The notes under the pieces: model-generated | Seen by the model: the letters and a program-made list of their open reading frames with translations, nothing else | The model's database searches: none | What the model was told of the DNA's origin: nothing | Made by a program: the position numbers and the translations under genes | Part shown: positions 11,605 through 44,432 of the stretch, in pieces | How positions within the stretch are numbered: position 1 is the stretch's first letter | How the letters are laid out: each line of letters opens with the position of its first letter | Assembly (NCBI GenBank): GCA_034003325.1 | Contig: JAVEYW010000006.1 | Span: 4,362 to 68,361, forward strand | DNA from: Desulfobacterales bacterium | GTDB lineage: Bacteria; Desulfobacterota; Desulfobacteria; Desulfobacterales; JAFDDL01 | Length of the DNA stretch: 64,000 bases | Direction of reading: 5' to 3'

Positions 11605-12177
11605 TCAGCTTTTGGCCCGAGACATGAACTGGCCTGTTTCCGTGTTCACCCGAATCACCTCGCCGACTGCCATATAATCGGGCACCAGCACGGTAACCCC
11701 ATTGGAAAGTTCCGCAGGTTTATTGCGGTTCGTGGCGGAGGCGCCTTTGATGGTCGGCGCCGTGTTCACAATTTCAAGGTCGATGGCTTGAGGCAGTTCA
11801 ATACACAGGGGGTGGCCTTCGCGCAGCAGCACCGTAATCCCTTCCAACCCCTCCACCAGCCACTGACGCTGCCCTTCGAGGTTATCCGCCGACAGGGTGT
11901 ATTGTTCATAATTCTCGCTATCCATGAACGTATGCATATTCTGATCACGGTAGAGATAACTTACCTTCCGCCTGTCCACCGTCATCTCTTCTAGCGAATC
12001 GCCACTCTTGAAGGTTTGGTCTAGTTTCTGGCCGGTGATCAGCGACGCGAACCGTACCTTGCACAAGGTGTTGCCCCCCCTTGCCGTAGGGGTGTGAATA
12101 TCGATTTGTTTGACCTGATAGGGCTGCTCGTCAATGTTGATGATATGTCCTTTTTTAAGATTTCCGGCTTTTAGCAA
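11605..12177 (-). CDS. yeiP: Elongation factor P-like protein YeiP/EfpL
   Basis: TTG start with AGGAG 8 nt upstream. EF-P three-domain length (190 aa). Loop ..HTPTARGGNTLCKVRF.. carries Arg where EF-P has the modified Lys, as in YeiP. Confidence 0.85.
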   Translation of the reverse strand: MLKAGNLKKGHIINIDEQPYQVKQIDIHTPTARGGNTLCKVRFASLITGQKLDQTFKSGDSLEEMTVDRRKVSYLYRDQNMHTFMDSENYEQYTLSADNLEGQRQWLVEGLEGITVLLREGHPLCIELPQAIDLEIVNTAPTIKGASATNRNKPAELSNGVTVLVPDYMAVGEVIRVNTETGQFMSRAKS

Positions 12178-16649: not shown

Positions 16650-16695
16650 AAAATAAAAAAGGGCGGTATATTCTCACCACATGAAAAACCGCCCC
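16650..16695 (-). terminator. Terminator candidate for the HU gene
   Basis: On the - strand: GGGGCGGT, about a 20-nt loop, ACCGCCC, then TTTTTTATTTTT. Confidence 0.5.
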
Positions 16696-17198: not shown

Positions 17199-18755
17199 TT
17201 AATTTATATTATTTATGAAATCAGCAACTTGTTTTGCAACACGCTGCCCATCCATGGCCGATGAAACGATGCCTCCGGCATAACCGGCCCCCTCACCGCA
17301 GGGGAAAAGGCGAAATAATTGGGAATGCATAAGGTTTCCGGCGTTTCGCGGAATACGCACGGGTGAACTGGTTCGGGACTCCACCGCGATCAGCAGGGCC
17401 TCTTCAGTCAGAAACCCTTTCAGTTTTCGATTAAAAATGTCAAAGGCAGCCGCCAGACGGCGGGTGACAAAGGGCGGCAGCAGTTCATGGAGTGGTGCTG
17501 AGGCTATCCCCGGCAGATACGATGATGTTGGTAACCTGTCGGAAAGTTTACTTTTGATAAAATCCGTCATTCGTTGGGCTGGTGCACGTTGCCCGTTGCC
17601 GCCGCCCATTCGGAACGCCTTGGCCTCAAGCGCCCGCTGAAACGCCAAAACGCTTAAAGGCCCCTTGGCGTGATCAGCTTGAATGTCTTCGGGGAGAACT
17701 TCCACGACCATTCCGGCATTGGCAAAGGGTCCCTTTCGCCCGGAAAAACTCATGCCGTTGACAGCCAGCTCACAGGGGCCCGTTGCCGTGGGTACGATAT
17801 ATCCGCCCGGGCACATGCAAAAGGAATAGATGCCTCTATCCTCGTATTGGCAGGCCAGCCGGTAGGTGGCCGCCGGAAGGTTTGAATGCCGCGGGTGGTG
17901 ATGGTATTGCGCGGCATCAATCAAGGCCTGGGGATGCTCCACTCGCACGCCGATTGCCAGGGGTTTTGCCTCGATGAGAAAGCCCCTGTCATGAAACCAC
18001 TGATAGAGGTCGCGAGCCGAATGGCCGGCGGCCAGTATGACGGCATCCGCCGTTACCTGATTGCCGTCCGACAGGCGAACGCCGGTGACGGCGCCTTCAT
18101 TCAATATAAAGTCCGTGACCCTGGCGTTAAAATGAACTTCCCCGCCGCAGGTTGTGATGGTTTCGCGAATCCGTTGAACCACGGCGGGCAATTTATTGGA
18201 ACCGATATGGGGATGGGCGTCTATTAGAATATCCTCGGATGCGCCATGGTAAACGAGCAGTTGCAGAATCTTTCCCGCATCGCCTCGTTTGGTGGCACGG
18301 GTGTAGAGCTTGCCGTCTGAAAAAGTACCCGCGCCCCCTTCGCCGAAGCAGTAATTGGAGTTGGGGTCAATGGTTCCGTCCCGTAAAATTCCGGCGATGC
18401 GTTTGCGCCGTGCGCGAACATTCTCCCCTTGCTCCAGGACAATCGGCTTGATCCCGTTTTCAATCAGCGCCAAAGCCGCAAAATAACCTGCCGGACCGGC
18501 GCCCACAATGATAACGCGGGGCGTTGGCGCCACGGGTTCAAACCGGAACATCGGTTTATCAGCGGCGTTTTGTCTTTTTGGGTTGATCTCGATTCGAAGG
18601 ACGAAATGGGGGGGGTTCCGGCGTGCATCGACCGAGCGCTTGATAATGCGATAGTGCTCACCAACATGGGGGTGTTTTTCAAGAATTCGGCGAGAAAGAT
18701 AAGCCTTATCGTAAATAAACTTTGGAGCTACTGTGATATCGACAAAATGGACCAA
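17199..18755 (-). CDS. FAD-dependent oxidoreductase (COG2509-like)
   Basis: IIVGAGPAGYFAAL dinucleotide-binding motif. The track start at 18806 would overlap the upstream gene. An in-frame TTG at 18755 (MVHFVDIT..), 17 nt after the upstream stop, is preferred. Confidence 0.8.
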   Translation of the reverse strand: MVHFVDITVAPKFIYDKAYLSRRILEKHPHVGEHYRIIKRSVDARRNPPHFVLRIEINPKRQNAADKPMFRFEPVAPTPRVIIVGAGPAGYFAALALIENGIKPIVLEQGENVRARRKRIAGILRDGTIDPNSNYCFGEGGAGTFSDGKLYTRATKRGDAGKILQLLVYHGASEDILIDAHPHIGSNKLPAVVQRIRETITTCGGEVHFNARVTDFILNEGAVTGVRLSDGNQVTADAVILAAGHSARDLYQWFHDRGFLIEAKPLAIGVRVEHPQALIDAAQYHHHPRHSNLPAATYRLACQYEDRGIYSFCMCPGGYIVPTATGPCELAVNGMSFSGRKGPFANAGMVVEVLPEDIQADHAKGPLSVLAFQRALEAKAFRMGGGNGQRAPAQRMTDFIKSKLSDRLPTSSYLPGIASAPLHELLPPFVTRRLAAAFDIFNRKLKGFLTEEALLIAVESRTSSPVRIPRNAGNLMHSQLFRLFPCGEGAGYAGGIVSSAMDGQRVAKQVADFINNIN

Positions 18756-18771
18756 CCCCGCACCCTTTTCC

Positions 18772-21015
18772 CTATAGCACCTTGCAGTAGGTGGACTTTC
18801 CATCACCCGGCGCGTAAAAGTCTTCCATTACCGAGGCCACCCGGTAGCCGTGCTGCTCGTAAAAGGCACGGGTGCTGGCGTACTGAACGCGCTGAGATGT
18901 TTCCACATACATGCGGGTTCCGCCGGCCTCCCGGGTCATTTTTTCGCTCTCAGCCAATAATTTGCTTCCCAGGCCCCGGCTCTGGAAATCCGGATGCACC
19001 GCAATCCAATAGAGGTCGTAGGCGGAAGCCGTGCACGCGATCGGGCCGTAACAGGCATAGCCGACCAAGCGGCTGTACTGCTCGGCCAAAATGAATCTGT
19101 ATCCGCTGGCTTCACCCGTGTCCAGATAGGTCTGCACCAGTTCCATGGCCACACCGATTTCCGCATCATTGAAAAATCCGGTGATTTCCACCAAGCGCCC
19201 GATGCGCTCTTTGTCTCTGGGAAGGAGATTGGTTCTATAGGTTACGTTGTTGAGATAAGGAAAATGCACGTCTTTTTTCATGCTGTGTTGAACGCCGGCC
19301 GCCGAAATTCCGGTAAAGAACCGCAAGGCGTTGGTGCCCAGGGTGCGGGTCCGATAACCGCCTTCCTGAACAACGAGCGTGGGAAGACCGGCCGCGCCGA
19401 TCATTTTCCCGTTGATCTCGAAGTCTTTTCCCGTGAGCGACCAGGTGCCGGTGGGATCACCCTTGGCCGGATCGAGTCCCAACGCCACGACGAGAAAGGT
19501 GGGACGGAAGTCTTTTATTCGTTCCAAGGCCAAGGCGAGGGCTTTGTGGTATTTTTCGCCGGTGACCGATTCAGGTAGCGGCAGGTTCAGGTTGAAGCCT
19601 TCACCGTCCGCCGCACCGATGTCATCTTCAAATCCGGAAAAATAGGGATATGCGAACTTCGGATGACCGTGAATGGATACCGTAAAGACATCGGATCGCT
19701 CGTAGAAAATATTCTCTTGGCCGTTTCCGTGGTGGTAATCGATATCCAGAATGGCGACCCGGCCATAGGCCCTGAGAAACTGGGCCGCAATAGCGACATT
19801 GTTGAAATAGCAGAACCCGCCAAAGGTTTTGCGTTCGGCGTGGTGACCGGGTGGGCGGACCAGGGCATAGGCAATGCGTCGACCGTCTAAAATTTCCTTT
19901 GCCGCCGTGAGCGCACAATCCACTCCGTGGCGTGCCGCTTTATACGCGTTTCGGTTTAAGGGGGTAAAGGTGTCGATACAATAATAGCCGGCCAGCACAG
20001 AGCGATCCTTGGGCGGCCGGGTCTGATTCCGAATGGGAAACACATACGGATAAAGGGATTTGCCATCGGGCACCTCCAGGCAGGTTCGGCGCAAATAGGT
20101 TATGAACCCATTGTCGTGAACCGCTGAAATGTGCTTGTCCGGAAAGCTTCGCGGTTTGATCGTGTCAAAAAGACCGCTTTTATCCAGTTCGGCCATAATG
20201 CTTTCGACCCGAACCGGGGCTTCAACATATCCCCGCTCATGAATGTGGTGAATGGTGTGGTGTGTGGTGACGACGATGGCCATGCGTTCCAACGAGCGTC
20301 CCTCGACTTTCGAACGGACCGCTTCGGGCTTTACATATTGAAAGGGTCGCAACCGAACCGGGTTGTCCTTTATGGAATCCACAACTTTTTTGACATATTC
20401 CGGCGGGCAGTATTCTGCGTATTTTCGTTCCAAAATCGCTTGAACCACTTTTTTCATAAAGCCGGGTTTGAGCTCGCGCTGCTTGCTTAAGCCGTCATAA
20501 ACCAAATGCGGCATACAGACATCTTCCGGCTTCACCGGGCTTTCATAGCCGGTGTGGATGATGGGGCGGGCGCCGTATTGTTCGTAGAAGCGAAGACGCT
20601 TTTGGTTCTCTTTCAATAGGGCCGTATCCGGGCAAAGGCTTGCTTCGTCGGGCAGGCATTCGAAAAAAAGCCCGGCTGTTCCCAGTGCATCGGCTTCCTG
20701 CCGGACGCGCTCATACAGGGCGCCCCCGACGCCGCTGCGAATGTCCGCGGTGGCGATCCAGTCGAGATAGCAAAACCCGATGTCCGGCTCATAGAGGACA
20801 AGCGCAAATCCCAACACCCGGTTTCGAAGATTTTCGGCGACGAACAGAACGCTTCGAAAGCGCTGCTTAAAGGGATTGCGCAGTTTTTCGCCGATGCTTT
20901 CAATTTCTTCCTCTGGCACTGAGCTGAACCTGAACCGAAGAATGTCCTTTACCTGGCGAAGCGTATCCACATTGCCGGGAAGGACATCATCATAAATGCG
21001 TCGTATGCGGATCAT
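18772..21015 (-). CDS. Three-domain fusion: GNAT acetyltransferase, histone-deacetylase-family (acetylpolyamine/acetoin AcuC-like) amidohydrolase, GNAT acetyltransferase
   Basis: ATG 21015 overlaps the upstream stop (ATGA). N-terminal GNAT motif IRSGVGGALYERV. HDAC motifs VRPPGHHA and LDIDYHHGNG. C-terminal GNAT motif FQSRGLGSKLL. 747 aa. Confidence 0.85.
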   Translation of the reverse strand: MIRIRRIYDDVLPGNVDTLRQVKDILRFRFSSVPEEEIESIGEKLRNPFKQRFRSVLFVAENLRNRVLGFALVLYEPDIGFCYLDWIATADIRSGVGGALYERVRQEADALGTAGLFFECLPDEASLCPDTALLKENQKRLRFYEQYGARPIIHTGYESPVKPEDVCMPHLVYDGLSKQRELKPGFMKKVVQAILERKYAEYCPPEYVKKVVDSIKDNPVRLRPFQYVKPEAVRSKVEGRSLERMAIVVTTHHTIHHIHERGYVEAPVRVESIMAELDKSGLFDTIKPRSFPDKHISAVHDNGFITYLRRTCLEVPDGKSLYPYVFPIRNQTRPPKDRSVLAGYYCIDTFTPLNRNAYKAARHGVDCALTAAKEILDGRRIAYALVRPPGHHAERKTFGGFCYFNNVAIAAQFLRAYGRVAILDIDYHHGNGQENIFYERSDVFTVSIHGHPKFAYPYFSGFEDDIGAADGEGFNLNLPLPESVTGEKYHKALALALERIKDFRPTFLVVALGLDPAKGDPTGTWSLTGKDFEINGKMIGAAGLPTLVVQEGGYRTRTLGTNALRFFTGISAAGVQHSMKKDVHFPYLNNVTYRTNLLPRDKERIGRLVEITGFFNDAEIGVAMELVQTYLDTGEASGYRFILAEQYSRLVGYACYGPIACTASAYDLYWIAVHPDFQSRGLGSKLLAESEKMTREAGGTRMYVETSQRVQYASTRAFYEQHGYRVASVMEDFYAPGDGKSTYCKVL

Positions 21016-22037
21016 TTGGGACCCCCATTTTCTCGATCCGCAACCATGAGGATGCGTTCGACGGCCGCCCAAAACGGAATTCCCGCCTGCGCCAGGGCCG
21101 CGGCAAAGCCGGCGTCCGGCGAAAGGCACGGGTTGGCGTTGACTTCAAGAATCCATGGCGCACGGTTTGAATCGACACGAAAGTCCACCCGGGCATATCC
21201 TTTCAACCCGAAGCAGTGCCAGGCGGACAAGGCCTTTTCTGCCAGCGTTTTTAGAAGCGGCCGGTCCTCGGGCGCAAAGGTGAAGCGCCGAGGCGTGTGC
21301 GAGTATTCATAAGCAGTTGAATCCCATTTGGCCCGATACCCGACGATGCGGGGTTTCTCCGGCCCGTACCCCATAAATTGAATTTCCGCGGGCGGTAGCA
21401 CCACCGGTCCATCCGGTCCGTCCAGCACCGAGAGGTTGAACTCGCGTCCCTCGATAAAGGTTTCGGCAAAGCACGCGCCGCCAAGATCCGTTGCCCGGGT
21501 GGCCATTTCAGCCACCACCGCATCGGCTGAAACTCCGCTTAGAAGTCCGTCTTCATCCAGACCGATGGAGGCGTGCTCCCAGACGGATTTGATGATCCAG
21601 GTCTTGGCCTCAATTTCTTGCGCTATGCCGGGTTTTTGAATGGGACTTTCCGTTGCCGGATAGGGGCCGAGCCAGTCCGGGGTCGGCAACCCGCTGGCGC
21701 GCATAACGGTTTTCGCCATGATTTTGTTTGAAGAAAGCATCATGGCGTCGGCTTGAGCGCCGGTGAAGGGGAAATGGTTCGCTGCCAGGAAAAAGGGCAC
21801 CAGGTGAATCAGCGCACCGCTTTGCCCAAGGGATTCTACCAGGTTAAAGACCATGTTCGGCGCTGCGTGGGAAAGCCGCTGCTTGAGTGCGGACAAATTA
21901 AGATCACAGGGAAGCACCACCGCATCGTGGCCCAGGTGCTCTAACGCGTCGCTGATGGCCGCAACCTGGGCCAGCACGTCTTTCTCATCCGGTGCGCTTT
22001 CATCAAGAATCGCGTTGTGAAGGATGGTTACGCGCAT
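21012..22037 (-). CDS. ATP-grasp ligase, divergent D-Ala-D-Ala-ligase-like
   Basis: ATG 22037 (MRVTILHNAILD..) lies 5 nt after the upstream stop. ATP-grasp C-terminal region ..GYARVDFRVDSNRAPWILEVNANPCL... Confidence 0.8.
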   Translation of the reverse strand: MRVTILHNAILDESAPDEKDVLAQVAAISDALEHLGHDAVVLPCDLNLSALKQRLSHAAPNMVFNLVESLGQSGALIHLVPFFLAANHFPFTGAQADAMMLSSNKIMAKTVMRASGLPTPDWLGPYPATESPIQKPGIAQEIEAKTWIIKSVWEHASIGLDEDGLLSGVSADAVVAEMATRATDLGGACFAETFIEGREFNLSVLDGPDGPVVLPPAEIQFMGYGPEKPRIVGYRAKWDSTAYEYSHTPRRFTFAPEDRPLLKTLAEKALSAWHCFGLKGYARVDFRVDSNRAPWILEVNANPCLSPDAGFAAALAQAGIPFWAAVERILMVADRENGGPK

Positions 22038-22042
22038 GATGA

Positions 22043-23041
22043 TTATCTCATTTTGCTCGCCGGAATGCGGCTCATGGCCGAAGATAGAATTCGCTCGATC
22101 AGGGTTCGATAGGAAATTCCGATCAGACCGCAAAGGATGGGCAGATCCGAGTGCTCGGGATGCAGTCCGGCCAGGGGGTTTACTTCCATGAAAAGGGGGT
22201 TCCCCTTTTCATCGCACCGAAGATCGATGCGACCGCCGTCCCGACATCCCAGGGCGCGCCAAGCTTCAAGGGAGACTTCTTCGGCCGTCTTGACGGTGAT
22301 ATCCGCATCGGCAGGAACCAGTCGATAGGTGACCCGTTCCTCGCTTTGCTCCTTATTGACATAAGAGTAAACGCCGGCCTCCGCTTTTTCACCGAGGAGC
22401 ACTTCCATGGTGCCGAGCGTTACGGCGTCTTTTCCGGTGCCGATGATGCCCACCGTGAATTCCCGCCCCGGCAGATACGGCTCAAGCAGCACGGGCTGGC
22501 GGAAGACATCTATCATTTGGGCGCACGCCGGCTTTACCCGTTCTGCTTGCCGGATAATGGAAGCGGGGCTAACGCCTTTGCCGGTTCCCTCGGCGACGGG
22601 CTTGATAAAATAGGGCGGTGAAAAGGGAATGTGAATATCATCCGCGGCGTATTCCACCACCACAAAATCCGATGTGGGGATACCGTTATCCCGCAGAATT
22701 CGTTTGGTCATGCCCTTATGTAAGGTAAGGCTCATGACCAGCGGATCGGAGAAGGTATAGGGGATTCCATAAAGATCCAAAATGGCGGGCACCTGGGCTT
22801 CCCGGCCGCTGCCGGAAAGCCCTTCGGCAATGTTAAACACCATATCCCATCGGTCGCCGGCCGCGAGCCGTTCGGTGAGCTTGCGGCCGGTTCCGATTCG
22901 ATCGGTTCGATGACCCAGGGAACGAAGCGTGTCTTCGAGGGCCGTGATGGTATCGTCCCGGTCGAACTCGGCCGTTTCGTCTTCGCTATAGCCCATGGCG
23001 AGGTATTCGGAACGAAGGTCATACGTTAATCCGATGATCAA
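22043..23041 (-). CDS. ATP-grasp ligase, D-alanine--D-alanine ligase family
   Basis: TTG start overlaps the kamA stop (TTGA). ..FIKPVAEGTGKGV.., ..GGRIDLRCDEKGNPLFMEVNPLAGL... 332 aa. Confidence 0.85.
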   Translation of the reverse strand: MIIGLTYDLRSEYLAMGYSEDETAEFDRDDTITALEDTLRSLGHRTDRIGTGRKLTERLAAGDRWDMVFNIAEGLSGSGREAQVPAILDLYGIPYTFSDPLVMSLTLHKGMTKRILRDNGIPTSDFVVVEYAADDIHIPFSPPYFIKPVAEGTGKGVSPASIIRQAERVKPACAQMIDVFRQPVLLEPYLPGREFTVGIIGTGKDAVTLGTMEVLLGEKAEAGVYSYVNKEQSEERVTYRLVPADADITVKTAEEVSLEAWRALGCRDGGRIDLRCDEKGNPLFMEVNPLAGLHPEHSDLPILCGLIGISYRTLIERILSSAMSRIPASKMR

Positions 23042-24351
23042 TGAACGTGTTCTCCCAATCCGTCTTCAGTTGCGGTGTCGGGGTATCGAAACACCCGGTT
23101 TTCATAATTGCTCAGCAGCAGATTCCCCTCAGCCCGGCCGACCCGGTATTCGGGCAATAACGGAATCTTCCCGCCGCCCCCCGGTGCATCCACCACATAG
23201 GTGGGCACGGCGTATCCGCTGATAAAGCCTCTTAAGCCTCGAATGATATCGAGTCCCTTTTGAATGGGGGTGCGGAAATGGCCCGACCCGGTGATGGGAT
23301 CGCACTGGTACAGGTAATAAGGCCGAACCCGCATTTTCAGCAGATGGTAGACCAGCTCCCGCATGGTGTCAACCTGATCATTGATGCCTTTTAAAAGCAC
23401 GGTCTGCGAGCCTAAGGGAATACCGGCATCCGCCAGCATGCCGCAGGCCCGGTATGTTTCGGGCGTGCCCTCGTCCGGATGCGTGAAATGAAGGCTCATC
23501 CAGAGGGGATGATGTTTTTTGAGCATGCGTGTCAGTTTGGGCGTAATCCGCTGGGGCAGCACCGCCGGCACCTTGGTCCCGATGCGAATGATGTCCAGGT
23601 GCGGAATGCGCCGCAACCGGGTCAGCAGCCAGTCGAGCCGGTCGTCATTCAGGGTCAGCGGGTCTCCGCCCGACAAAATAACATCGTGAATGGCCGGGGT
23701 GGCGGCAATATAGTCGATGGCGCGCTCCAGGCGCTTTTTGCTCGGGAAAATGCTTCGTTTGCCCACGACCCGGCTGCGGGTGCAGTACCGGCAATAGGTG
23801 GAGCAAAAGTCGAGCACGAGCAGCAGGGCGCGGTCCGGATACCGGTGCACCAGTCCCGGAACCGGGCTCTGAGCTTCTTCGTGAAGCGGATCATCGGCCT
23901 CGCAAGGCATTCGCAAAAACTCGCCGGTCGTCGGAATCACGGTCCGTCGTAGCGGTTGCAACGCATCCTGCCGGGAAATCAAGCTGGCGTAATAGGGGGT
24001 GATCCCCAGCGGCAGCTTGTTTTCGGGTTGGGACAATGCGATTCTTTCGTCCTCGGACAAGGTGATCAGGGTTTCCAGATGCGGCAGTTTATTAATCCGG
24101 TTGCCGATCTGCCATTGCCAATCGTTCCATTGTTTGTCTGAAATGTCGGGGTAAAAGCGTTTTCGGAAATCGCGGGTCTTGGCGGTTGAACGGGTTTGTC
24201 GGGGCGCCCTGGCCGTGGGGGCTGTATCCAGGTTGATAATGGATACAATGGCCGGTGCCGGCACGGAATAGAGCGCTGAACTCGGAGGTTCCTCAACTTT
24301 CTCGTCGGACTGATCTTCCACGCTGGGTTCAATTTGCATGAGCGTTTGCAT
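23038..24351 (-). CDS. kamA: Radical-SAM lysine 2,3-aminomutase (KamA/AblA family) with about 90-aa low-complexity N-terminal extension
   Basis: CSTYCRYC (CxxxCxxC). ..WNDWQWQ.., YQCD and VVDAPGGGGK motifs. ATG 24351 (MQTLMQIEP..) with AAGGGA upstream is preferred over the track start at 24462. Confidence 0.85.
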   Translation of the reverse strand: MQTLMQIEPSVEDQSDEKVEEPPSSALYSVPAPAIVSIINLDTAPTARAPRQTRSTAKTRDFRKRFYPDISDKQWNDWQWQIGNRINKLPHLETLITLSEDERIALSQPENKLPLGITPYYASLISRQDALQPLRRTVIPTTGEFLRMPCEADDPLHEEAQSPVPGLVHRYPDRALLLVLDFCSTYCRYCTRSRVVGKRSIFPSKKRLERAIDYIAATPAIHDVILSGGDPLTLNDDRLDWLLTRLRRIPHLDIIRIGTKVPAVLPQRITPKLTRMLKKHHPLWMSLHFTHPDEGTPETYRACGMLADAGIPLGSQTVLLKGINDQVDTMRELVYHLLKMRVRPYYLYQCDPITGSGHFRTPIQKGLDIIRGLRGFISGYAVPTYVVDAPGGGGKIPLLPEYRVGRAEGNLLLSNYENRVFRYPDTATEDGLGEHVH

Positions 24352-25098
24352 GATTTTTCCCTTTGACTGAGCAATTGTAACGGTTATGGTCGCGGCCTGG
24401 TTTTTAAGGCCTTTTTTGGTTTCTACCTCACCCGCAAAGCAAGACACATGCCAATTTTGCAACTAATTGTATTATATTGTAATTAATGTAAAAGCCCCTT
24501 ATTTACGAACTCCGGGTTCCGGTTTCTTCATTTGCCTGTTTATGAGGCATGCGCGAGGGCGATATGCTGATCGGTCCGGTCAGAGGGTCGAAAGCGCCTA
24601 TTCAATAGGGCGTTAACGCAAGAAGATGATATAAAACGGCTTGTTGGATCGAACCTGTCTCCATAAGGCCAATGAATGCGTTTGTTTATTGATAGTTGAG
24701 GGGCTGATAAGCCCAAACGAAATTCCTGGGGACATCCCATCAGGGCCATTTCGTGCTCACCGGCCGAATTGGGTCTTTGGAAAATCGGAATATTGGGGGC
24801 TTTTTAAGAGTCAACCCATTTAAATTAAATGATATTGTTTGTTACAGAACATAGAGTTCCGCTTATGGCTGGTTTGCGGATAAAACGGAACTGTCATATC
24901 TTTTTTAATCGGTATCGGTGCGGCGGAAGAATATCAACGCACAATTGTTTTTTTGATAGCATTTCCAATGGGATGTTGTCCCCATCACCATGCGGAGCAT
25001 TGAGAATAAGCGATTTTTGCTTTGATGCGGGTAGCCGGAATGTGCTGGACGAGGCCCTAAGGGCGCGGTGAGCGAATTCATTTTCCGGACTTTTGGTG

Positions 25099-25190
25099 GT
25101 AGCCTTTGGCACGAAAGAGCGTATATCACTGGAGAAGGTCGGTGGCTGCCAAGCAGTCCAGCCGCCCAGCTTAAGGCCTTGCCGGGTTAG
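25099..25190 (+). repeat. Intergenic repeat, subtype B, 5'-truncated
   Basis: TAGCCTTTGGCACGAAAGAGCGTATATCACTGGAGAAGGTCGGTGGCTGCCAAGCAGTCCAGCCGCCCAGCTTAAGGCCTTGCCGGGTTAG aligns to the B copies at 53148 and 63153. It lacks ATCAGAAACAT. Confidence 0.8.
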
Positions 25191-25295
25191 GCCCTTTACC
25201 AGAAACAGGCACGCTTTTGCGTGTATATTTGCCGAAGGTGAAAGATGGCTTGTATGCATCCCAGCATCCCAGCATCCGGCTTTGCCGGATTAGGC
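25187..25295 (+). repeat. Intergenic repeat, subtype A, head-to-tail with the preceding B copy
   Basis: TTAGGCCCTTTACCAGAAACAGGCACGCTTTTGCGTGTATATTTGCCGAAGGTGAAAGATGGCTTGTATGCATCCCAGCATCCCAGCATCCGGCTTTGCCGGATTAGGC. Confidence 0.9.
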
Positions 25296-26620: not shown

Positions 26621-28495
26621 TCAGATGGGTTCATTGAATTGACATTTCAGCGTTACCACGTTTGCATCATGCGTGCTGCGGATTTTATATGGCAGCGTGT
26701 TAAATAACCGGAGCATGCCGGTGTTCGTGGGGGATGTGTACGCTATCAGTCCGGCAATGCCGTTTTCCCTGGCCGCTTTTGCCAGCTTGGCGATCAGAAT
26801 TTTCCCCAGACCACACCCTTGCCAGTCCTTGCTAACGGAAAACGCTATTTCCGCCATGTTGTTGGATTCCTCAAACAGATAGGTTCCGACGGCCACGGCG
26901 CGTTGAAACCCGATTTCACCCACCAATCCCACAATGGTCAAATCCTTCACATAATCTATGCGATATACGCCTTCCAGGTCATTTCTGAGAAAACGGGTTC
27001 TTTCATGAAAAAAGCGGGACACCACATCCTCTCGGTCCAGTTCATAGAAATGCTCCTGAATTCGCCTGACATCCACGGGTTTGGCGGCGCGGAAATTGAC
27101 ACGTTGGCCCTTGATTTCCAGTGCTTCAACCAAGTGACTCGGATAGACGCCTTGAAGGGATTCGGAAAGACTGATGGTGGGGCTCAGCAGTTCCATTTCT
27201 TTGGCTTTTGCAAACAACTCGTCTCTGAAATCGGGGTGCGCCAGTGAAATCATCGCCAGGGCGCGCTCTTGAAGGCTTTTTCCAAACAGCCGCACCATGC
27301 CGAATTCACTCACCACATAGTCCACATCGCCTCTGGGAACCACTACCGCTAAATCCTTAAGTTGGGGGACGATCCGGCTTTCCTTGCCCTGCTTGGCCGT
27401 GGCGGGGAGAATTAAAATCGATTTACCGCCCTCGGAGCGGACCGCGCCGCGCACAAAGTCGAGCATGCCGGTCACGCCGATGTAATTATTGTGCCGAAAG
27501 GCGTCGGCCGCAACTTGTCCTGTCAAATCAATGGCTTCCGCGACGCAAACCGATACCATCTTGTGGTGACGGGCGATGATATCCGGGTCGTTCACATAAT
27601 CGGAGGGCTGAAAATCGATGGACAGATTGCTGTTTAAAAATTCATATAGATCCGGGCTTCCCATGGCGCTGGAGGCGACGATACGGCCCTCGTTGTATCC
27701 TTTTTTCCGGTTGGTGATCACGCCTTCGGCCACCAGCCGCATGATGGCGTCCGTAATGCATTCGGTGTGAATCCCCAAATCATTTTTGTTGCGAAGCCCC
27801 AGCAGGGTTTTTTGAGGAGCGGCGCCGGGATCGATGTGCAGGGTCGAGCCGTCTTCGATGAGCCTTGCCGTTTCAAGGGAGATGGCTTCCGCTGTCGCCA
27901 TATCCGGCGCGGGCGCCGGCGTGAGCAACGGTTCGTCATATTCCACAATGCTGTTGACATCGTTTACATGAATAAAGCTTCGACCAATAATCCGTGGCAT
28001 GAGTGAGTTGACCTGTGCGATGACAATGTCCGCGGATTGGGCTGCCGCCAGCGTGATATCCACGGATATTCCCAGGCTCATCCAGCCGAAATCGTCGGGC
28101 GGGCTGACTTGTATCAATGCCACGTGAATGGGCATTCGGCGGCTTTTAAACAAGCGCGGCACCGCGCTGAGGTTAATGGGGGTAAAAAACCGCCGGTTGG
28201 CGGCAAAGGATTGCGGTGCCGCAGACCCCAGGTATAGGCAGCGAATATTCAACGCCTGGTCTCCGCTGGCATGAGCGATCATGGACAACGAGGTGCTCTC
28301 CTGGCTCATCATCCGGACAATTTCAAGGTCTGTGAAATGATTTGCTTTTTCGGCCAGGCACTTGACCAGATATTGCGGCTCGCCGCAGGTGGAGCCGATA
28401 AAGACCCGTTGACCCGGTTTTATCAGGGCGATGGCGGCCGGCCCTGTTTTTTGTTTGATGACATACTCATCTGCCCAGTAAGTGGCTTTGGTCAT
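26621..28495 (-). CDS. Acetyl-CoA hydrolase/CoA-transferase family domain fused to a C-terminal GNAT acetyltransferase
   Basis: ATG 28495 with GGAGGA upstream (MTKATYWADEY..). CoA-transferase-like ..IKPGQRVFIGSTCGEPQ... C-terminal GNAT motif WQGCGLGKILI. Confidence 0.8.
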   Translation of the reverse strand: MTKATYWADEYVIKQKTGPAAIALIKPGQRVFIGSTCGEPQYLVKCLAEKANHFTDLEIVRMMSQESTSLSMIAHASGDQALNIRCLYLGSAAPQSFAANRRFFTPINLSAVPRLFKSRRMPIHVALIQVSPPDDFGWMSLGISVDITLAAAQSADIVIAQVNSLMPRIIGRSFIHVNDVNSIVEYDEPLLTPAPAPDMATAEAISLETARLIEDGSTLHIDPGAAPQKTLLGLRNKNDLGIHTECITDAIMRLVAEGVITNRKKGYNEGRIVASSAMGSPDLYEFLNSNLSIDFQPSDYVNDPDIIARHHKMVSVCVAEAIDLTGQVAADAFRHNNYIGVTGMLDFVRGAVRSEGGKSILILPATAKQGKESRIVPQLKDLAVVVPRGDVDYVVSEFGMVRLFGKSLQERALAMISLAHPDFRDELFAKAKEMELLSPTISLSESLQGVYPSHLVEALEIKGQRVNFRAAKPVDVRRIQEHFYELDREDVVSRFFHERTRFLRNDLEGVYRIDYVKDLTIVGLVGEIGFQRAVAVGTYLFEESNNMAEIAFSVSKDWQGCGLGKILIAKLAKAARENGIAGLIAYTSPTNTGMLRLFNTLPYKIRSTHDANVVTLKCQFNEPI

Positions 28496-28557
28496 TATCG
28501 TATCCTCCAAACACGGTGGCTTTCCGTGAACGGACTTAGAAAAAGAGAATGGGGGCA

Positions 28558-29121
28558 TTAGTGCGCTGAAGCACCGGCTTTCAGCGCGTCAATAGAAGCT
28601 TGTAACAGCATGTCCTTGCCTTTGAGACGGTCAGTCAGCACATGGGTAATATCGTCCATCGTGCAATAAAGCGGTGCAGTGTTAAAATCGGCTTTCAAGA
28701 AAAGAGATAAGGTAAACCCGAGCATGATCAGATTGATGGCCCGGGGATTGTCTATATTTTGAGCCAGTAAATCCGCATTCAGATGATGGGCGCATAGACC
28801 GGAAGTCTTCTTTGTTGAAGCGCTGCTGTTGACCGCAGCCCATGCGCCGGGCTTAAGATAGCCGCTGTGCTGATCAAGGCTCTCCGCTTTAAGGGCGATA
28901 AGGCCATCCGCTTCTCCGGGCCGGATAAGGGGGCTGGCGAATGGCCCCACCTTAAGGTGCGAGATTACTGTTCCTCCCCGTTGGGCCATTCCGTGGGTTT
29001 CAGCGGTAAATACCGGAAACCCTTTGCGGATAGCCGCTTCGGCCATCAATTGGGTAATGAAAAGCACTCCCTGCCCCCCCACGCCGCTGATAACAATCTG
29101 ATACGGTACCCTATCTTTCAT
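28558..29121 (-). CDS. iorB: Indolepyruvate:ferredoxin oxidoreductase beta subunit (2-oxoacid:acceptor oxidoreductase gamma-type)
   Basis: YQIVISGVGGQGVLFITQLMAEAA..ETHGMAQRGG. 187 aa. Directly downstream of iorA. Confidence 0.85.
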   Translation of the reverse strand: MKDRVPYQIVISGVGGQGVLFITQLMAEAAIRKGFPVFTAETHGMAQRGGTVISHLKVGPFASPLIRPGEADGLIALKAESLDQHSGYLKPGAWAAVNSSASTKKTSGLCAHHLNADLLAQNIDNPRAINLIMLGFTLSLFLKADFNTAPLYCTMDDITHVLTDRLKGKDMLLQASIDALKAGASAH

Positions 29122-29133
29122 CGGTAGTGATGG

Positions 29134-30975
29134 TTACCCCTGTTCCGTTTTCTTCTTTTGAATAGCCCCCTTGGGGCAGACATTCAGGCATACGCCGCAT
29201 TCGTTACACACCAGCGGATCGATGAAGGTCCGGCCGGTGTGCGCGTTATGAATGAGGGCCGGACACTCAAAATGCTGACGGCAAAACCCGCAGCCGTCGC
29301 AATCATCGGTGATTTCAACGGCAATCCGCTCAACGGAGTGCCCGGTGCGCGCCGCATCGAGAATACAGGGATGCCTTGCGATCACAACGGCCGGCCCCTG
29401 TTTTCGGCTGAAGTCCACCGCTTTTTTGAGCAATTTGACAAACGCTTTGGTGTCATAGGGTTCGCCCACTTCACAGGACCGAATGCCGCAGCCTTTGACC
29501 AGCGTTTCCATGTCCACCGGCACCAGATTTTCCCCGGTGGCGCTTTTTCCGGTGGCCGGTGTGGGTTGGCTGCCGGTCATGGCGGTGGTGCGGTTATCCA
29601 GAATGACCAGCACAAAACGGACGTTCTGGTTAACTGCGTCGATAAGAGCCGGTACCCCGGCATGAAAAAAGGTGGAGTCACCGATGGTGGCGATGATATC
29701 GGGCCGCTTCTCCTGGTTTTGATAGGCATGATAAAAACCGGCCGCCTGGCTGATGGCGGCTCCCATGCACAGGACCGTGTCCACCGCCTTAAGATTGAGC
29801 CCCAACGTATAGCAACCGATGTCGCTGGTGTATATGCCCCGGGGCGCGGCCTTTTTAATGGCAAAGAAACTGGCCCTATGGGGACATCCCGCGCACAGGG
29901 TTGGGGGCCGTCCGGGTGCCGGTGTCAGCGTGGGGCTTATAGCAGTGACACCGGCAAATTTTGCTACCTGTTTTTCGATGATTTCCGGAAGCAGCTCCCC
30001 CACGCGGGTCACGGCGCCGTTTAGCTTCCCCTGAATACGGTTGCGATCCGCCAACTGCATTTCAATAACGCCGGTGGTTTCTTCGATGACCAGTATCCGA
30101 TCATAGGTAGATAACAGAGATTTCATAAACCGGGTGTGCAGCGGAAAGGGTTGGCGTACCTGGAAAAAGGCAACGGATTCCCACAGGTTCAGGCGTTTGA
30201 GAATGTCGATGGTGTAGGCGGAAGCCACTCCGGAGGATACCACGGCCTGTTTTGAATGGGTGCCGGGATTGTGAAAAATGGGTTCTGTCTCTTTATGGGC
30301 CGCAATCTGCGATAGTTTCTCCTCCAGTTCCAGGTGAAGCTGATAACGAAATTTAGGCGTTGCCGCCCAACGGGTCGAATCTTTTTTAAAAGCGGCTTTT
30401 CTATTCAGCGCATTCGAAACGAGCAGTTTCCCCGTCAGCACATCCTGGCGTGAATGGCAAACCCGGGTGGTGGGCCGCAGCATGACCGGGGTTCGAAACG
30501 CTTCCGAAAGGGCATAGGCCAAGGAAACCATCTCTTTGGCCTCGGCCGGAGAACCGGGGTCCAGCACGGGTATTTTGGCCATCATGGCCATCATGCGGCT
30601 ATCCTGTTCGGTCTGAGAGGAGTGCGGGCCGGGGTCATCGGCGCTGATCACCACGAAACCGCCGACCGTGCCCAAGTAGGCGGCACTCATTAATGAATCT
30701 GCGGCCACATTGAGGCCCACCTGTTTCATGCTTACGGCAGTTCGCAGTCCGGTCATGCTACCGGCGTAGGCGATCTCGAAAGCCACTTTTTCATTGATGG
30801 CCCACTGGGTATGCATGCCTATCTTATGCCGGCGTTGATACCCGACCACGGAAGAGAGGATCTCCGAGGCCGGCGTGCCGGGATAGGAAGTTGCCATGGC
30901 GCACCCGTTTTCAACCAGGCCCAGCGCGATGGCTTCGTTGCCCATCAAAAGTTCTTTTTTCGCAGAATGCTTCAT
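29134..30975 (-). CDS. iorA: Indolepyruvate:ferredoxin oxidoreductase alpha subunit (TPP-dependent, two C-terminal 4Fe-4S motifs)
   Basis: KELLMGNEAIALGLVENG..SYPGTPASEI. TPP-binding region GDSTFFHAG. C-terminal CDGCGFCRQHFECP and CNECGVCLNVCP. Confidence 0.9.
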   Translation of the reverse strand: MKHSAKKELLMGNEAIALGLVENGCAMATSYPGTPASEILSSVVGYQRRHKIGMHTQWAINEKVAFEIAYAGSMTGLRTAVSMKQVGLNVAADSLMSAAYLGTVGGFVVISADDPGPHSSQTEQDSRMMAMMAKIPVLDPGSPAEAKEMVSLAYALSEAFRTPVMLRPTTRVCHSRQDVLTGKLLVSNALNRKAAFKKDSTRWAATPKFRYQLHLELEEKLSQIAAHKETEPIFHNPGTHSKQAVVSSGVASAYTIDILKRLNLWESVAFFQVRQPFPLHTRFMKSLLSTYDRILVIEETTGVIEMQLADRNRIQGKLNGAVTRVGELLPEIIEKQVAKFAGVTAISPTLTPAPGRPPTLCAGCPHRASFFAIKKAAPRGIYTSDIGCYTLGLNLKAVDTVLCMGAAISQAAGFYHAYQNQEKRPDIIATIGDSTFFHAGVPALIDAVNQNVRFVLVILDNRTTAMTGSQPTPATGKSATGENLVPVDMETLVKGCGIRSCEVGEPYDTKAFVKLLKKAVDFSRKQGPAVVIARHPCILDAARTGHSVERIAVEITDDCDGCGFCRQHFECPALIHNAHTGRTFIDPLVCNECGVCLNVCPKGAIQKKKTEQG

Positions 30976-32196: not shown

Positions 32197-33195
32197 ATGA
32201 TGACGTCAAAAGACAAACTGGTCTATTTTATATATCTTCACCGAACGGGCCTGTGGGTGCTGGCGTTATCCCTGGCGCTCGTGGTATGGCCTTTATATGA
32301 GTCCAATCCTTACAACCTGGGACTTTCCAACCTGATTGCCATTCATCTGCTCGTTGTTCTGGGATTAAACTTATTTATCGGGTATGCCGGCCAGATCAGT
32401 CTCGGGCATGCCGGCTTTTTTGCGCTCGGCGCCTACGGGTCGGCGCTGGGCACGATCTCGTTAGGGTGGCCGGCCTGGCCGGTGATGGTTCTGGTGGCAA
32501 TAGCGGTGGCCTTCATTGCGCTGGCCGTCGGCTTGCCGGCGCTGAAACTCAGCGGGCACTACCTGGCCATGGCCACGCTTGGGTTTAATATCGTGGTTTA
32601 CCTGCTGCTGGTCCAATGGGATGCGGTTACCGGCGGCCCCGGCGGACTGGCGGAAATTCCCCACCTGTCCATGGGACCACTGGTATTTGACAGTGAAATT
32701 CGCCTTCATTATTTGTTGTGGACCTTTGCGATGGGTTGCCTGTTGCTGAGCCTTAACCTCGTACGCAGCGGCGCGGGAAGGGGACTTGCCGCCCTGGCTG
32801 AAGATGAGACCGCCGCTTCCGCCCTGGGTGTGGATACCAAACGGGCCAAAGTCAAAGTCTTTATTCTGTCGGCTGTTTTTGCGTCCCTGGCCGGAAGTCT
32901 TTTTGCCCATTGCTACGCCTTTGTCAGCCCCGAGTCCTTTAGTATTTTTGTGTCGCTGGAGTTTGTGATCATGGTGATTGTGGGCGGCATGGGGTCCATT
33001 TGGGGATCTTTGTTCGGCACGGCCTTGATCACCTTGCTGCCCGAATGGATCGAAGCGTTGGACGCTTATAAGGATATTCTTCATGGCCTGATTGTGGTAC
33101 TGATCCTGATGTTTCTCCCTCAGGGGCTGGTTACCGGCATTACCGATGCGGTGCGCACGCGCCTGGCGCTGGGGAGAAAACCGGGGATAAAATAA
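32197..33195 (+). CDS. livM: Branched-chain amino acid-type ABC transporter permease (LivM family)
   Basis: 332 aa, multi-TM. ..GYAGQISLGHAGFFALGAY.. is a LivM signature. Confidence 0.9.
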   Translation: MMTSKDKLVYFIYLHRTGLWVLALSLALVVWPLYESNPYNLGLSNLIAIHLLVVLGLNLFIGYAGQISLGHAGFFALGAYGSALGTISLGWPAWPVMVLVAIAVAFIALAVGLPALKLSGHYLAMATLGFNIVVYLLLVQWDAVTGGPGGLAEIPHLSMGPLVFDSEIRLHYLLWTFAMGCLLLSLNLVRSGAGRGLAALAEDETAASALGVDTKRAKVKVFILSAVFASLAGSLFAHCYAFVSPESFSIFVSLEFVIMVIVGGMGSIWGSLFGTALITLLPEWIEALDAYKDILHGLIVVLILMFLPQGLVTGITDAVRTRLALGRKPGIK

Positions 33196-33196
33196 G

Positions 33197-33961
33197 ATGC
33201 TTGACCTCAAAAACGTCACAAGATGGTTCGGTGGGCTGCCCGCCTTGCAGGATGTGAGCTTTCGAGTGGAACCCGGACGCGTCACGGCCCTGATCGGTCC
33301 CAACGGCGCCGGTAAATCGACCCTGATCAACTGTATCAGCGGGGTGGATAACTGTCAGACGGGCACCATTTTGTTGGAGCATCATTCCATTGAAAAATTG
33401 CCGGCGCACCAAATCGCAGCCTTCGGAGTCGCGCGCACCTTTCAGAACCTGAAACTGTTTTCACGCTTGTCCGTGCTGGACAATGTGCTGACCGGGTTGA
33501 CCGTGGCGGCGGAAAAGTCATTTATTCGATCCATGCTGCGGTTGCCTTCATTGCGCCACCAGGAGCGATCCTTGCGGCTGGCTGCATTTGAAGTGCTGGA
33601 CACCTTCGGGTTGGGGACAAAAGCCGACTGGCCGGCAGCAGCCCTATCCTACGGCGAAAAAAAACGGGTTGAGTTGGCCCGGGCCTTTGCGGGTGATCCC
33701 AGGATAGTTCTTCTGGATGAACCCGTGGCCGGGCTGAACACGGAGGAAACGGCTCAGATCGCGCGCCACATTCGGCAACAGAGAGCGGCCGGCCATACCA
33801 TGCTGCTGGTGGAACACGACATGGAACTGGTAATGGAGGTAGCCGACAAGGTGGTGGTTCTGGACAGCGGACGCTGCATCGCCCGGGGAACCCCGGCGCA
33901 GGTGCGAAGTAATCCCCTGGTATTGGAAGCCTACCTGGGGCGCATGGAGGCGGTTGCCTGA
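33197..33961 (+). CDS. livG: ABC transporter ATP-binding protein (LivG family)
   Basis: Walker [10 protein letters not shown], signature LSYGEKKRVE, Walker B LLDEP. 254 aa. Confidence 0.9.
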   Translation: MLDLKNVTRWFGGLPALQDVSFRVEPGRVTALIGPNGAGKSTLINCISGVDNCQTGTILLEHHSIEKLPAHQIAAFGVARTFQNLKLFSRLSVLDNVLTGLTVAAEKSFIRSMLRLPSLRHQERSLRLAAFEVLDTFGLGTKADWPAAALSYGEKKRVELARAFAGDPRIVLLDEPVAGLNTEETAQIARHIRQQRAAGHTMLLVEHDMELVMEVADKVVVLDSGRCIARGTPAQVRSNPLVLEAYLGRMEAVA

Positions 33962-33977
33962 TGAGAAAGCAAGCTCA

Positions 33978-36080: not shown

Positions 36081-36141
36081 GGCCGTTGCTATCACAGAAA
36101 TTTTAACATCATCGTCGAAAAATTTCAAAAGGAGGGGAAAA

Positions 36142-37317
36142 ATGATGAGACCAGCACATCGATTGGCGGCTGTGGTCGCCGCACTGGCAATGGGGATGTT
36201 CGCGGGAATCGCAACCGCCGGGGAGACCATTAAACTAGGCGCTTTTTTTGACCTGTCCGGTCCGGCCGCGTTTATCGGCACGCCGACCAAGCTGGTGGCC
36301 GAGATGGTTGTGGACAAAATCAACCACGAAGGGGGTGTCAACGGCCAAAAGCTTGAGTTGATCATTGGCGACACCGAGGGAGACCCGGCCAAGGCGGCCA
36401 ACATTGCAAAAAAATTCATTTACAAGGACAAGGTGGTCGCCATCATCGGTCCCACCCGTACCGATACCGGAATGGCGGTCAAGAAGATCATTCACGAGGG
36501 AAAGCTGCCCGCCTTCATGACCGTCGGCGGGGATCCGGTCATCATGGGCGGCCCCAAACTGGGACCGTTTGAGTGGGTGTTCAAGTCGCCCCAACGCTCT
36601 TCGGTAGCGGTCAAACGTCTCTATATGTACTTAAAAGACAAAGGGCTTACCAAAATAGCCCTGCTTACCGCATCCGATAGTTTCGGCAAGGACGGGGAAA
36701 GGTGGCTGAACAGCATGGCTTCCGAATTCGGTCTTGAGATCGTGGCCAAAGAATCCTTTGGCCCCAGGGATACCGACATGACGGCCCAGTTGACCAACGT
36801 CAAAAATGCCAAGCCCCAGGCCCTGATTGTCTGGACCATTGGACCTGCCGGCGCCATTGTTTCCAAGAATAAAGCCCAATTGGGCATCGACTTGCCGCTG
36901 TTTCAATGCCATGGGCTGCCGGACCCCAAGTATATCGAACTGGCCGGAAAGGCTGCTGAAGGCGATCGCATGCCGGCCACCAAACTGATGGTGGGCGACG
37001 CCCTGCCGGATTCAGATCCCCAGAAACCGGTCATCAAGGAGTTTATTCGGCTCTACAAGGATCAATACGGCTTTGACAAGCAATTTCCCATCAACACGCA
37101 TTCCGGGTATGCGTGGGACGCCATCATGATCGTGGCCGATGCCATGAAAAAAGCGGGCACGCAAGCCGATGCCCTGCGCACGGCCATCGAACAGACAAAG
37201 GGCTATGTGGGGGTTTCCGGCGTTTATAATCTGACACCCGAGGATCACAACGGCCTGGACGTGGATTCCATGGTGATCGTGCAGGTAAAGGACGGCCGGT
37301 TCGTTATGGCGGAATAA
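36142..37317 (+). CDS. ABC transporter periplasmic substrate-binding protein (LivJ/K-type, family 4)
   Basis: ATG 36142 with AAGGAGG upstream. Signal peptide MMRPAHRLAAVVAALAMGMFAGIATA. ..IKLGAFFDLSGPAAFIG.. is typical. Confidence 0.9.
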   Translation: MMRPAHRLAAVVAALAMGMFAGIATAGETIKLGAFFDLSGPAAFIGTPTKLVAEMVVDKINHEGGVNGQKLELIIGDTEGDPAKAANIAKKFIYKDKVVAIIGPTRTDTGMAVKKIIHEGKLPAFMTVGGDPVIMGGPKLGPFEWVFKSPQRSSVAVKRLYMYLKDKGLTKIALLTASDSFGKDGERWLNSMASEFGLEIVAKESFGPRDTDMTAQLTNVKNAKPQALIVWTIGPAGAIVSKNKAQLGIDLPLFQCHGLPDPKYIELAGKAAEGDRMPATKLMVGDALPDSDPQKPVIKEFIRLYKDQYGFDKQFPINTHSGYAWDAIMIVADAMKKAGTQADALRTAIEQTKGYVGVSGVYNLTPEDHNGLDVDSMVIVQVKDGRFVMAE

Positions 37318-43406: not shown

Positions 43407-43469
43407 AATCAATCTGCTTGAATGCTCATTGGCTCTGGTCGCCGGTTCTCAACGTTAAGAGGAGGCCCC

Positions 43470-44345: not shown

Positions 44346-44432
44346 CCTCTAAGCGGGATGCTTTCGAAAAAAGCGGGCGAAGCGCCGATTCGTTCCTAGA
44401 CCACTATCAACTTCGCAAAAGGAGTGCTTTTT

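Follow-up and report, generated by a model that had tools for sequence, protein, structure and literature searches.

A widely conserved module of a KamA-family aminomutase, two Ddl-like ATP-grasp ligases and a GNAT-deacetylase-GNAT fusion protein, probably concerned with beta-lysine

Gene layout and predicted enzymes of the module

The window analysed here is a stretch of 64,000 nt of Desulfobacterales DNA, and all coordinates are positions within it. Four open reading frames (ORFs) on its minus strand fill 24351..18772 exactly, forming a module of 5.6 kb that encodes a KamA-family aminomutase, two ATP-grasp ligases of the Ddl type (AG1 and AG2) and a fusion protein in which a deacetylase domain is placed between two GNAT domains. 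The module is a widely conserved orphan pathway: its enzyme families are known, and their combination is undescribed in the literature that we searched.

The first gene, kamA (23038..24351, minus strand), encodes a protein of 437 aa (MDX9786658.1), a predicted lysine 2,3-aminomutase of the KamA family of radical S-adenosylmethionine (SAM)/pyridoxal phosphate (PLP) enzymes, and starts with ATG, with AAGGGA located 8 nt 5' of it. The TTG start of AG1 (22043..23041, minus strand; carboxylate-amine ligase, paralogue 1, 332 aa) overlaps the TGA stop of kamA in the sequence TTGA, while a gap of 5 nt (TCATC) separates the TAA stop of AG1 from AG2 (21012..22037, minus strand; paralogue 2, 341 aa, MDX9786656.1). 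The fusion gene (18772..21015, minus strand) follows with an ATG that overlaps the TGA stop of AG2 as ATGA, and its product of 747 aa is 100% identical to NCBI MDX9786655.1. Homologues from other genomes have N-termini that match those given by these gene starts (MIIGLTYDL compared with MKIGLTFDL, and MIRIRRIYDD with MFRIRRIxD). In public databases these proteins carry generic labels, namely "KamA family radical SAM protein", "D-alanine--D-alanine ligase" for AG2 and "GNAT family N-acetyltransferase" for the fusion protein; the last two are misleading.

KamA is composed of the Pfam domains Radical_SAM and LAM_C and matches the lysine 2,3-aminomutase of Clostridium subterminale (PDB 2A5H) at 2.7e-136. 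In this alignment its motifs CSTYCRYC, YQCD and VVDAPGGGGK fall on C125/C129/C132, D293, D330 and K337 of 2A5H, and R134 is also aligned. As reported with the 2A5H structure, the three cysteines hold the Fe-S cluster, R134 binds the substrate carboxylate, D293 and D330 bind the epsilon-ammonium group of lysine and K337 binds PLP. The three cysteines, both aspartates and the PLP lysine are 100% conserved in an alignment of 43 module-linked KamA proteins, among which the counterpart of R134 is likewise given as invariant; glutamate 2,3-aminomutase, by comparison, reportedly replaces both of the lysine-binding aspartates (Ruzicka and Frey 2007). KamA passes the NCBIfam model of the KamA subfamily (TIGR00238, 346.7 against a cut-off of 199.2) and remains below the cut-offs of the glutamate (413.7 against 650) and arginine (368.3 against 600) aminomutase models. 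Since the residues of the lysine site are invariant but only the subfamily model is passed, lysine would be the most likely substrate of an enzyme that appears to form a clade of its own. An N-terminal extension of about 60 residues is unconserved.

AG1 and AG2 are anciently diverged Ddl-type ATP-grasp ligases, only 26% identical to each other. Both contain the Pfam domain Dala_Dala_lig_C (5.6e-23 and 1.3e-15, respectively), and Ddl is the best match of both in the PDB (1e-22 for AG1) and in NCBIfam; nevertheless the best Ddl model scores, 150.6 bits for AG1 and 95.0 bits for AG2, fall far short of the cut-off of 243 (NF002378). Aligned to E. coli DdlB, AG2 keeps K97, K144, K215, R255, D257, E270 and N272, and the same set is retained in AG1 when the DdlB residues are transferred through the pairwise alignment of the two paralogues. 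The ATP-grasp catalytic set (K/K/E/K/R-D/E-N) is in fact conserved in 52 AG1 and 39 AG2 orthologues. At the position of DdlB Tyr216, a residue of the D-Ala site, AG1 instead has Glu (NKE) and AG2 has Trp (AKW motif). Because the catalytic set is kept while the Ddl cut-offs are missed and Tyr216 is replaced, both proteins are predicted to be active carboxylate-amine ligases with a specificity other than that of Ddl. A peptidoglycan role as Ddl was rejected on the same cut-offs and on the Tyr216 test. Moreover, the module also occurs in metagenome-assembled genomes (MAGs) of Dehalococcoidales and, to our knowledge, cultured Dehalococcoides lack peptidoglycan, which further argues against a role in murein synthesis.

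The fusion protein is built of three domains. The central one (residues 264-570; 19306..20226, minus strand) is a predicted zinc deacetylase of the HDAC fold and of the acetylpolyamine amidohydrolase (APAH) type, recognized by Pfam as Hist_deacetyl over residues 264-567 (3.8e-76). It aligns end to end with the APAH structure 6PHR (1.5e-74, residues 33-344 of 348) and also matches the APAH structures 9GKZ, 3Q9B and 3MEN. The tandem histidines H391-H392, the zinc ligands D426/H428/D515 and the catalytic Y554 are invariant across 19 aligned homologues. By sequence comparison the domain is a predicted relative of the acetylpolyamine amidohydrolases rather than of the AcuC-type protein deacetylases, and this points to a small N-acetyl-alkylamine as substrate rather than to a protein.

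The C-terminal GNAT (residues about 600-747; 18772..19218, minus strand) is matched in Pfam by Acetyltransf_7, _1 and _10 over residues 636-728 and carries the Q-x-x-G-x-G motif. It is an orthologue of Dde_3044 of Desulfovibrio alaskensis G20, whose structure is solved (PDB 2R7H, 3.7e-37). The N-terminal 230 residues (20326..21015, minus strand) also form a GNAT domain, although a divergent one that Pfam detects as Acetyltransf_7 only at E 0.011 and therefore misses at 1e-3. Comparison by hhalign with the family of the C-terminal GNAT gives a probability of 96.5% (E 7e-10), and a profile of the domain finds as its best PDB match 3PP9, a putative streptothricin acetyltransferase (E 0.004). Its AF2 model (pLDDT 84) resembles both GCN5 and 2R7H in Foldseek, with probability 1.0 and a TM of about 0.76. 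A G-x-G-V-G-G loop for acetyl-CoA is retained in the domain, which also has an invariant E119-C120-L121-P122-D123.

A preliminary description of this locus, made from the DNA letters and their translations, had proposed a coupled operon for beta-lysine-derived metabolites, and much of it is borne out by these data. The four minus-strand genes lie at the coordinates it gave, with the TTGA, the gap of 5 nt and the ATGA that it had read, and the overlapping or very tight junctions, together with synteny elsewhere, agree with an operon-like unit. The radical-SAM motif and both lysine-binding aspartates that it had read in KamA align to 2A5H and are invariant in the orthologues; the two ligases are, as it had said, distinct paralogues, each of them conserved; and the GNAT-HDAC-GNAT architecture holds, the weak N-terminal domain being confirmed by profile and by fold. 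The module has no GNAT of the AblB type that it had cited from methanogens: with the AblB model TIGR03827 the C-terminal GNAT reaches 13.8 bits (E 0.028; cut-off 205.1) and the N-terminal GNAT gives no match, so that the analogy with ablAB is a functional one only.

Conservation and gene neighbourhood

When one genome per GTDB species was scanned, at least 597 relatives emerged, and the best 80 loci were compared with 8 kb of neighbourhood on either side. KamA, AG1, AG2 and the GNAT-deacetylase protein occur together in 47 of these 80 loci, which strongly confirms the four-gene set that had been described from a single genome. Synteny of this extent, in many phyla, is an arrangement far beyond chance. 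The gene order of the window is found in 26 loci, and in another 12 the C-terminal GNAT is placed before the N-terminal GNAT in the fusion; the other complete loci show varied arrangements, including a C-terminal GNAT encoded as a separate gene or an inverted block of genes. This lineage-dependent shifting or splitting off of the C-terminal GNAT supports a functional link between the parts. Most loci lacking a complete module run into contig ends.

The complete module was found in Desulfobacterota, in Alphaproteobacteria (Hyphomicrobiaceae, Methyloceanibacter and Kiloniellaceae), in Gammaproteobacteria (Woeseiaceae and Nitrococcus), and in Planctomycetota, Dehalococcoidia, Bacteroidota and Myxococcota, at least seven phyla being counted in all. 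The GNAT-deacetylase gene alone is additionally present in Synergistota, Lentisphaerota and Acidobacteriota. The module has a specific marker in the N-terminal GNAT, which is always joined to the deacetylase, nearly always starts a protein of about 570-760 aa, and has 413 representatives among 1.84 billion clusters at 50% identity.

Clustering of all ORFs in the 80 loci revealed no further gene family conserved beside the module. The same loci have no small ORF of 25-95 aa common beyond single lineages and no conserved transporter or carrier protein next to it, and consequently there is no sign of a peptide made on the ribosome and modified after translation (RiPP), of an exported antibiotic or of a carrier-dependent pathway. 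A precursor peptide cluster was rejected because no conserved small ORF adjoins the ligases, and carriage by a plasmid or another mobile element because a plasmid search gave no match to the module.

Between kamA and AG1, four loci (for example L020, 5107..5637) have an additional gene whose product, about 176 aa long, contains several cysteine pairs of the CxxC type. This protein presumably resembles the YkgJ-type CxxCxxCC family of zinc/iron-binding proteins and may be a putative accessory to the radical-SAM enzyme.

Transcription signals and other genes of the window

A strict promoter consensus of the sigma-54 type (-24/-12), TGGCATGTGTCTTGCT, lies on the minus strand at 24438..24453, 87 nt upstream of the ATG of kamA. 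The 64-kb window has no second match to TGGCAYN5TTGCW, 0.21 matches being expected in it, and the background of the consensus is 0.0097 per 560 nt. Three other Desulfobacterota loci (L003, L006 and L047) have similar sites upstream of kamA, as against about 0.4 expected among 45 loci. The four genes, perhaps together with the gene that follows them, appear to be transcribed from a putative sigma-54 promoter. In three loci (e.g. L049, 6395..7906) a sigma-54-dependent response regulator of the NtrC/Fis type adjoins the module, a location that fits the consensus upstream of kamA. A simple scan of the same upstream region found no sigma-70 consensus, and a scan for sigma-70 promoters and intrinsic terminators gave counts near those obtained after shuffling, the weak terminator-like hits within the genes being little commoner than in shuffled DNA and none of the sites in the operon being convincing.

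Directly downstream of the fusion gene is a gene for an FAD-dependent protein (17199..18806, minus strand; FAD-depend_C, 2.7e-70), and the first terminator-like site on the minus strand occurs after it, at 16680..16663. It was considered as a fifth member of the module and rejected, as none of the 80 loci has it next to the module; it may be a co-transcribed passenger outside the conserved set.

Upstream of kamA extends an intergenic gap of about 940 nt with low G+C content (24352..25289), in which we found no convincing ORF and no similarity to related loci. An inverted-repeat search upstream of kamA found none. A riboswitch or leader RNA was rejected because the window has no Rfam match at the gathering threshold and 24300-25300 has none at E<=1. 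A stem-loop rich in GGCC(T/A) is located at 24394..24411, in the predicted 5' leader of kamA.

Elsewhere in the window a sucrose cluster occupies 53459..57998 on the minus strand and comprises a PfkB sugar kinase (57093..57998), a fusion of sucrose-phosphate synthase and sucrose-6F-phosphate phosphatase (54904..57225; S6PP 1e-73) and a GH13 enzyme of the alpha-amylase family (53459..54907). Its gene content implies a predicted capacity for sucrose synthesis in this Desulfobacterales genome.

Three further regions encode fusions. At 26621..28558 (minus strand) a protein of 645 aa joins the N- and C-terminal domains of an acetyl-CoA hydrolase/transferase to a C-terminal GNAT, and it adjoins a 2-oxoacid:ferredoxin oxidoreductase pair (28558..29121 and 29134..30975). 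An ORF of 708 aa at 33954..36080 (plus strand) combines an ABC-transporter ATPase domain with an AMP-binding domain (PaaK-like, AMP-binding_C_2) and stands within a branched-chain amino-acid ABC transporter cluster, with a permease at 32197..33195 and a binding protein at 35989..37317. Finally, the plus-strand ORFs 47698..50841 and 44424..47081 encode, respectively, a fusion of 1047 aa that unites a NuoF-like domain (Complex1_51K), Fer4_20 and a pyridine-nucleotide-disulphide oxidoreductase, and the adjoining molybdopterin oxidoreductase with NuoG-like Fe-S domains; an MTHFR-like gene lies upstream (43422..44345), and the region could encode a formate dehydrogenase or an electron-bifurcating complex.

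Proposed pathway, known systems and significance

No account of this gene combination and no assigned product were found in the open literature that we searched, although an earlier in-silico mention may exist; the preliminary description, which could name no described pathway of such composition, is in agreement. Papers on copper stress in D. alaskensis and on Planctomycetes gave no information on the module. Since no product is assigned in this literature, the module probably makes an undescribed small molecule based on beta-lysine. We lean, by a modest degree, towards a self-contained biosynthetic unit for a small beta-lysine amide or peptide whose amines would be managed by acetylation and deacetylation.

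In such a pathway KamA would convert L-lysine to beta-lysine (3,6-diaminohexanoate), as the residues present in its active site suggest. AG1 and AG2 would then form one ATP-dependent amide bond each through an acyl-phosphate, making two bonds in sequence, and beta-lysine could enter the ligation either as the carboxyl or as the amine partner. The two GNAT domains would acetylate amino groups with acetyl-CoA, and the APAH-type domain would deacetylate a long-chain primary amine, for example the epsilon-amine of beta-lysine. Two uses of the acetyl group can be envisaged: it may be a transient protecting group on one amine of beta-lysine that makes the ligation regiospecific, or the GNAT/deacetylase pair may shift the product between a cationic form and one that is neutral or zwitterionic. 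The least certain part is the role of the product, which would likely serve as a solute of the cytoplasm, be it a compatible solute or a cation resembling the polyamines. A broader version of this proposal, that the module yields an undescribed and widespread class of short cytoplasmic beta-lysine amides or oligomers with net charge toggled by a dedicated acetyltransferase/deacetylase protein, which could act as an acetyl-switchable polyamine surrogate or a new compatible solute in anaerobic and sediment bacteria of at least seven phyla, we hold tentatively, at somewhat short of even chances.

Several observations weigh against the proposal of a self-contained beta-lysine amide pathway. KamA scores below the cut-off of the AblA equivalog (470.6 against 525.4), and it lacks the C-terminal 45-50 residues of the clostridial enzyme. 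Nine loci that extend 6 kb or more in both directions have the GNAT-deacetylase gene alone; its product may also work without the other module genes, or those genes may lie elsewhere in these genomes. Fusion of a GNAT to a deacetylase could create a futile cycle, except if the two domains have different nitrogens as targets or work at different steps. As for the solute role, many carriers come from saline or marine samples according to their record titles, and others come from lake, soil or digester, so that a function as osmolyte is not established.

One of the closest known systems is that of methanogens, in which the ablA/ablB pathway makes N-epsilon-acetyl-beta-lysine (Pflueger et al. 2003, cited in PMC3543383). 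Both it and the module have a KamA-family aminomutase and a GNAT in one operon with beta-lysine as a probable intermediate; ablAB, however, is a two-gene unit, whereas the module has four or five genes, including two ligases, a second GNAT and the APAH-type deacetylase. In the Pelobacter genome paper an adjacent KamA/GNAT pair is labelled ablAB (PMC3543383). That annotation may refer to the module described here, because the Desulfuromonadales loci L039 and L046 have the same GNAT-KamA adjacency.

A second comparison is offered by N-acetylglutaminylglutamine amide (NAGGN), which is made by Ngg, a GNAT plus ATP-grasp protein, and AsnO. There too N-acetylation by a GNAT and a peptide bond made by an ATP-grasp enzyme lead to a small cytoplasmic N-acetyl peptide solute; the ATP-grasp and GNAT families are nevertheless different, aminomutase and deacetylase are missing, and the amidotransferase is absent from the module; the parallel is one of logic and not of homology. 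The existence of N-acetyl peptide solutes such as NAGGN, together with the many saline carriers, makes a role as compatible solute plausible.

The solved APAH chains matched here align over their full length with the module deacetylase and have in common with it the zinc ligands, the tandem histidines and the catalytic tyrosine, but they are chains of 341-362 residues made of the deacetylase alone, while in the module family a dedicated GNAT always comes before the deacetylase, which as a rule also occurs in linkage with KamA and the ligases. Ddl and Van ligases have the fold and the ATP/Mg catalytic residues in common with AG1 and AG2, and they differ from these not only in the scores and in Tyr216 but also in that the gene context of the module is unrelated to murein synthesis. 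In the beta-lysylation of elongation factor P (EF-P) by EpmA/EpmB/EpmC a KamA-family aminomutase likewise supplies beta-lysine for an amide bond; the module KamA, however, scores 240.1 against the EpmB cut-off of 369.3, and no gene for an EpmA (PoxA)-like ligase is conserved beside the module in the 80 loci. The window does contain efpL (11605..12177, minus strand), a paralogue of EF-P that belongs to the EfpL/YeiP type, reaching 226 with NF003392 (cut-off 216), and that has Arg at the tip of its loop (TARGG). A link with EF-P was rejected and the co-occurrence judged a coincidence, as efpL is 6.6 kb away and of the Arg type, EpmA is missing and the pairing is unconserved.

Four other explanations were weighed. 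The module might be an elaborated osmolyte system of the ablAB kind, in which KamA and one GNAT make N-epsilon-acetyl-beta-lysine, the deacetylase recycles it on osmotic downshift and the ligases turn some of the pool into a di- or tripeptide solute, in analogy to NAGGN. AblA is the model closest to KamA, the chemistry of GNAT and deacetylase fits acetyl-beta-lysine, many carrier genomes are saline or marine, the published Pelobacter label is ablAB and the organism also has the sucrose-phosphate synthase/phosphatase cluster; on the other hand the C-terminal GNAT fails the AblB model, KamA is under the AblA cut-off, there are lake, soil and digester MAGs among the carriers, and the two ligases, for which ablAB has no need, equal KamA in conservation. 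The sucrose cluster, from which a compatible solute had earlier been argued as if it were nearby, lies 30 kb from the module and is absent from the gene families conserved within 8 kb in other genomes, and it was therefore dropped as functional evidence, counting neither for nor against the osmolyte idea. On balance we regard this elaborated ablAB system as unlikely, although it is the first alternative to be kept in mind. The earlier interpretation is supported in part: for the gene unit, the lysine-type KamA, the distinct ligases and the fusion architecture, and less so for the analogy with ablAB, the solute argument drawn from sucrose and the proposed product.

It is less probable again that the ligases couple beta-lysine or short chains of it to a protein or to a polymer of the envelope, as in peptide tagging by RimK or TTL, with the GNATs and the deacetylase tuning the charge of the group added. 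RimK and TTL are ATP-grasp enzymes that modify proteins, and AG2 has a weak Pfam match to TTL (E 1e-4); in NCBIfam the C-terminal GNAT comes closest to RimI, though below cut-off, the N-terminal GNAT is structurally nearest to GCN5, and high conservation across phyla suggests a conserved target. Against such a modification, neither a substrate gene nor a small ORF accompanies the module as a conserved neighbour, the deacetylase groups with the small-molecule APAHs and not with protein deacetylases, the ligases are of the Ddl type, a group known for small substrates, and the Arg-type efpL is not conserved with the module. An aminomutase acting on arginine, on ornithine or on a derivative of lysine, for example N-acetyl-lysine, whose product would not be based on beta-lysine, appears more doubtful still. 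The failure of KamA at all three equivalog cut-offs (AblA, glutamate and arginine) with success at the family level only, its unconserved N-terminal extension and its truncated C-terminus would agree with such a substrate, but the invariance of D293, D330, R134 and K337 in the 43 orthologues, the reported loss of both aspartates in glutamate 2,3-aminomutase and the rank of AblA as best-scoring model all speak for lysine. We give very little credence to a catabolic or salvage role, that is to lysine fermentation or to uptake and deacetylation of acetylated polyamines: KamA is indeed the first enzyme of clostridial lysine fermentation and APAH enzymes serve polyamine salvage, but no kamDE, kdd, kce, kal or transporter genes are conserved beside the module, and two ATP-consuming ligases with two GNATs that consume acetyl-CoA are anabolic features.

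The proposal of a beta-lysine amide or peptide would have consequences beyond this genome. The roles of beta-lysine known to us are few: the osmolyte acetyl-beta-lysine, the beta-lysyl group placed on EF-P, the fermentation of lysine, and antibiotics of the streptothricin/viomycin type. The module is compact, with four genes and no accessory genes required, which makes it amenable to heterologous expression; moreover, the structurally characterized orthologue Dde_3044 exists in Desulfovibrio alaskensis G20, a genetically tractable organism. If the proposal is true, the module would represent a fourth or fifth use of beta-lysine, and its broad spread among phyla would point to a common, so far unrecognized metabolite in sediment and anaerobic microbiomes.

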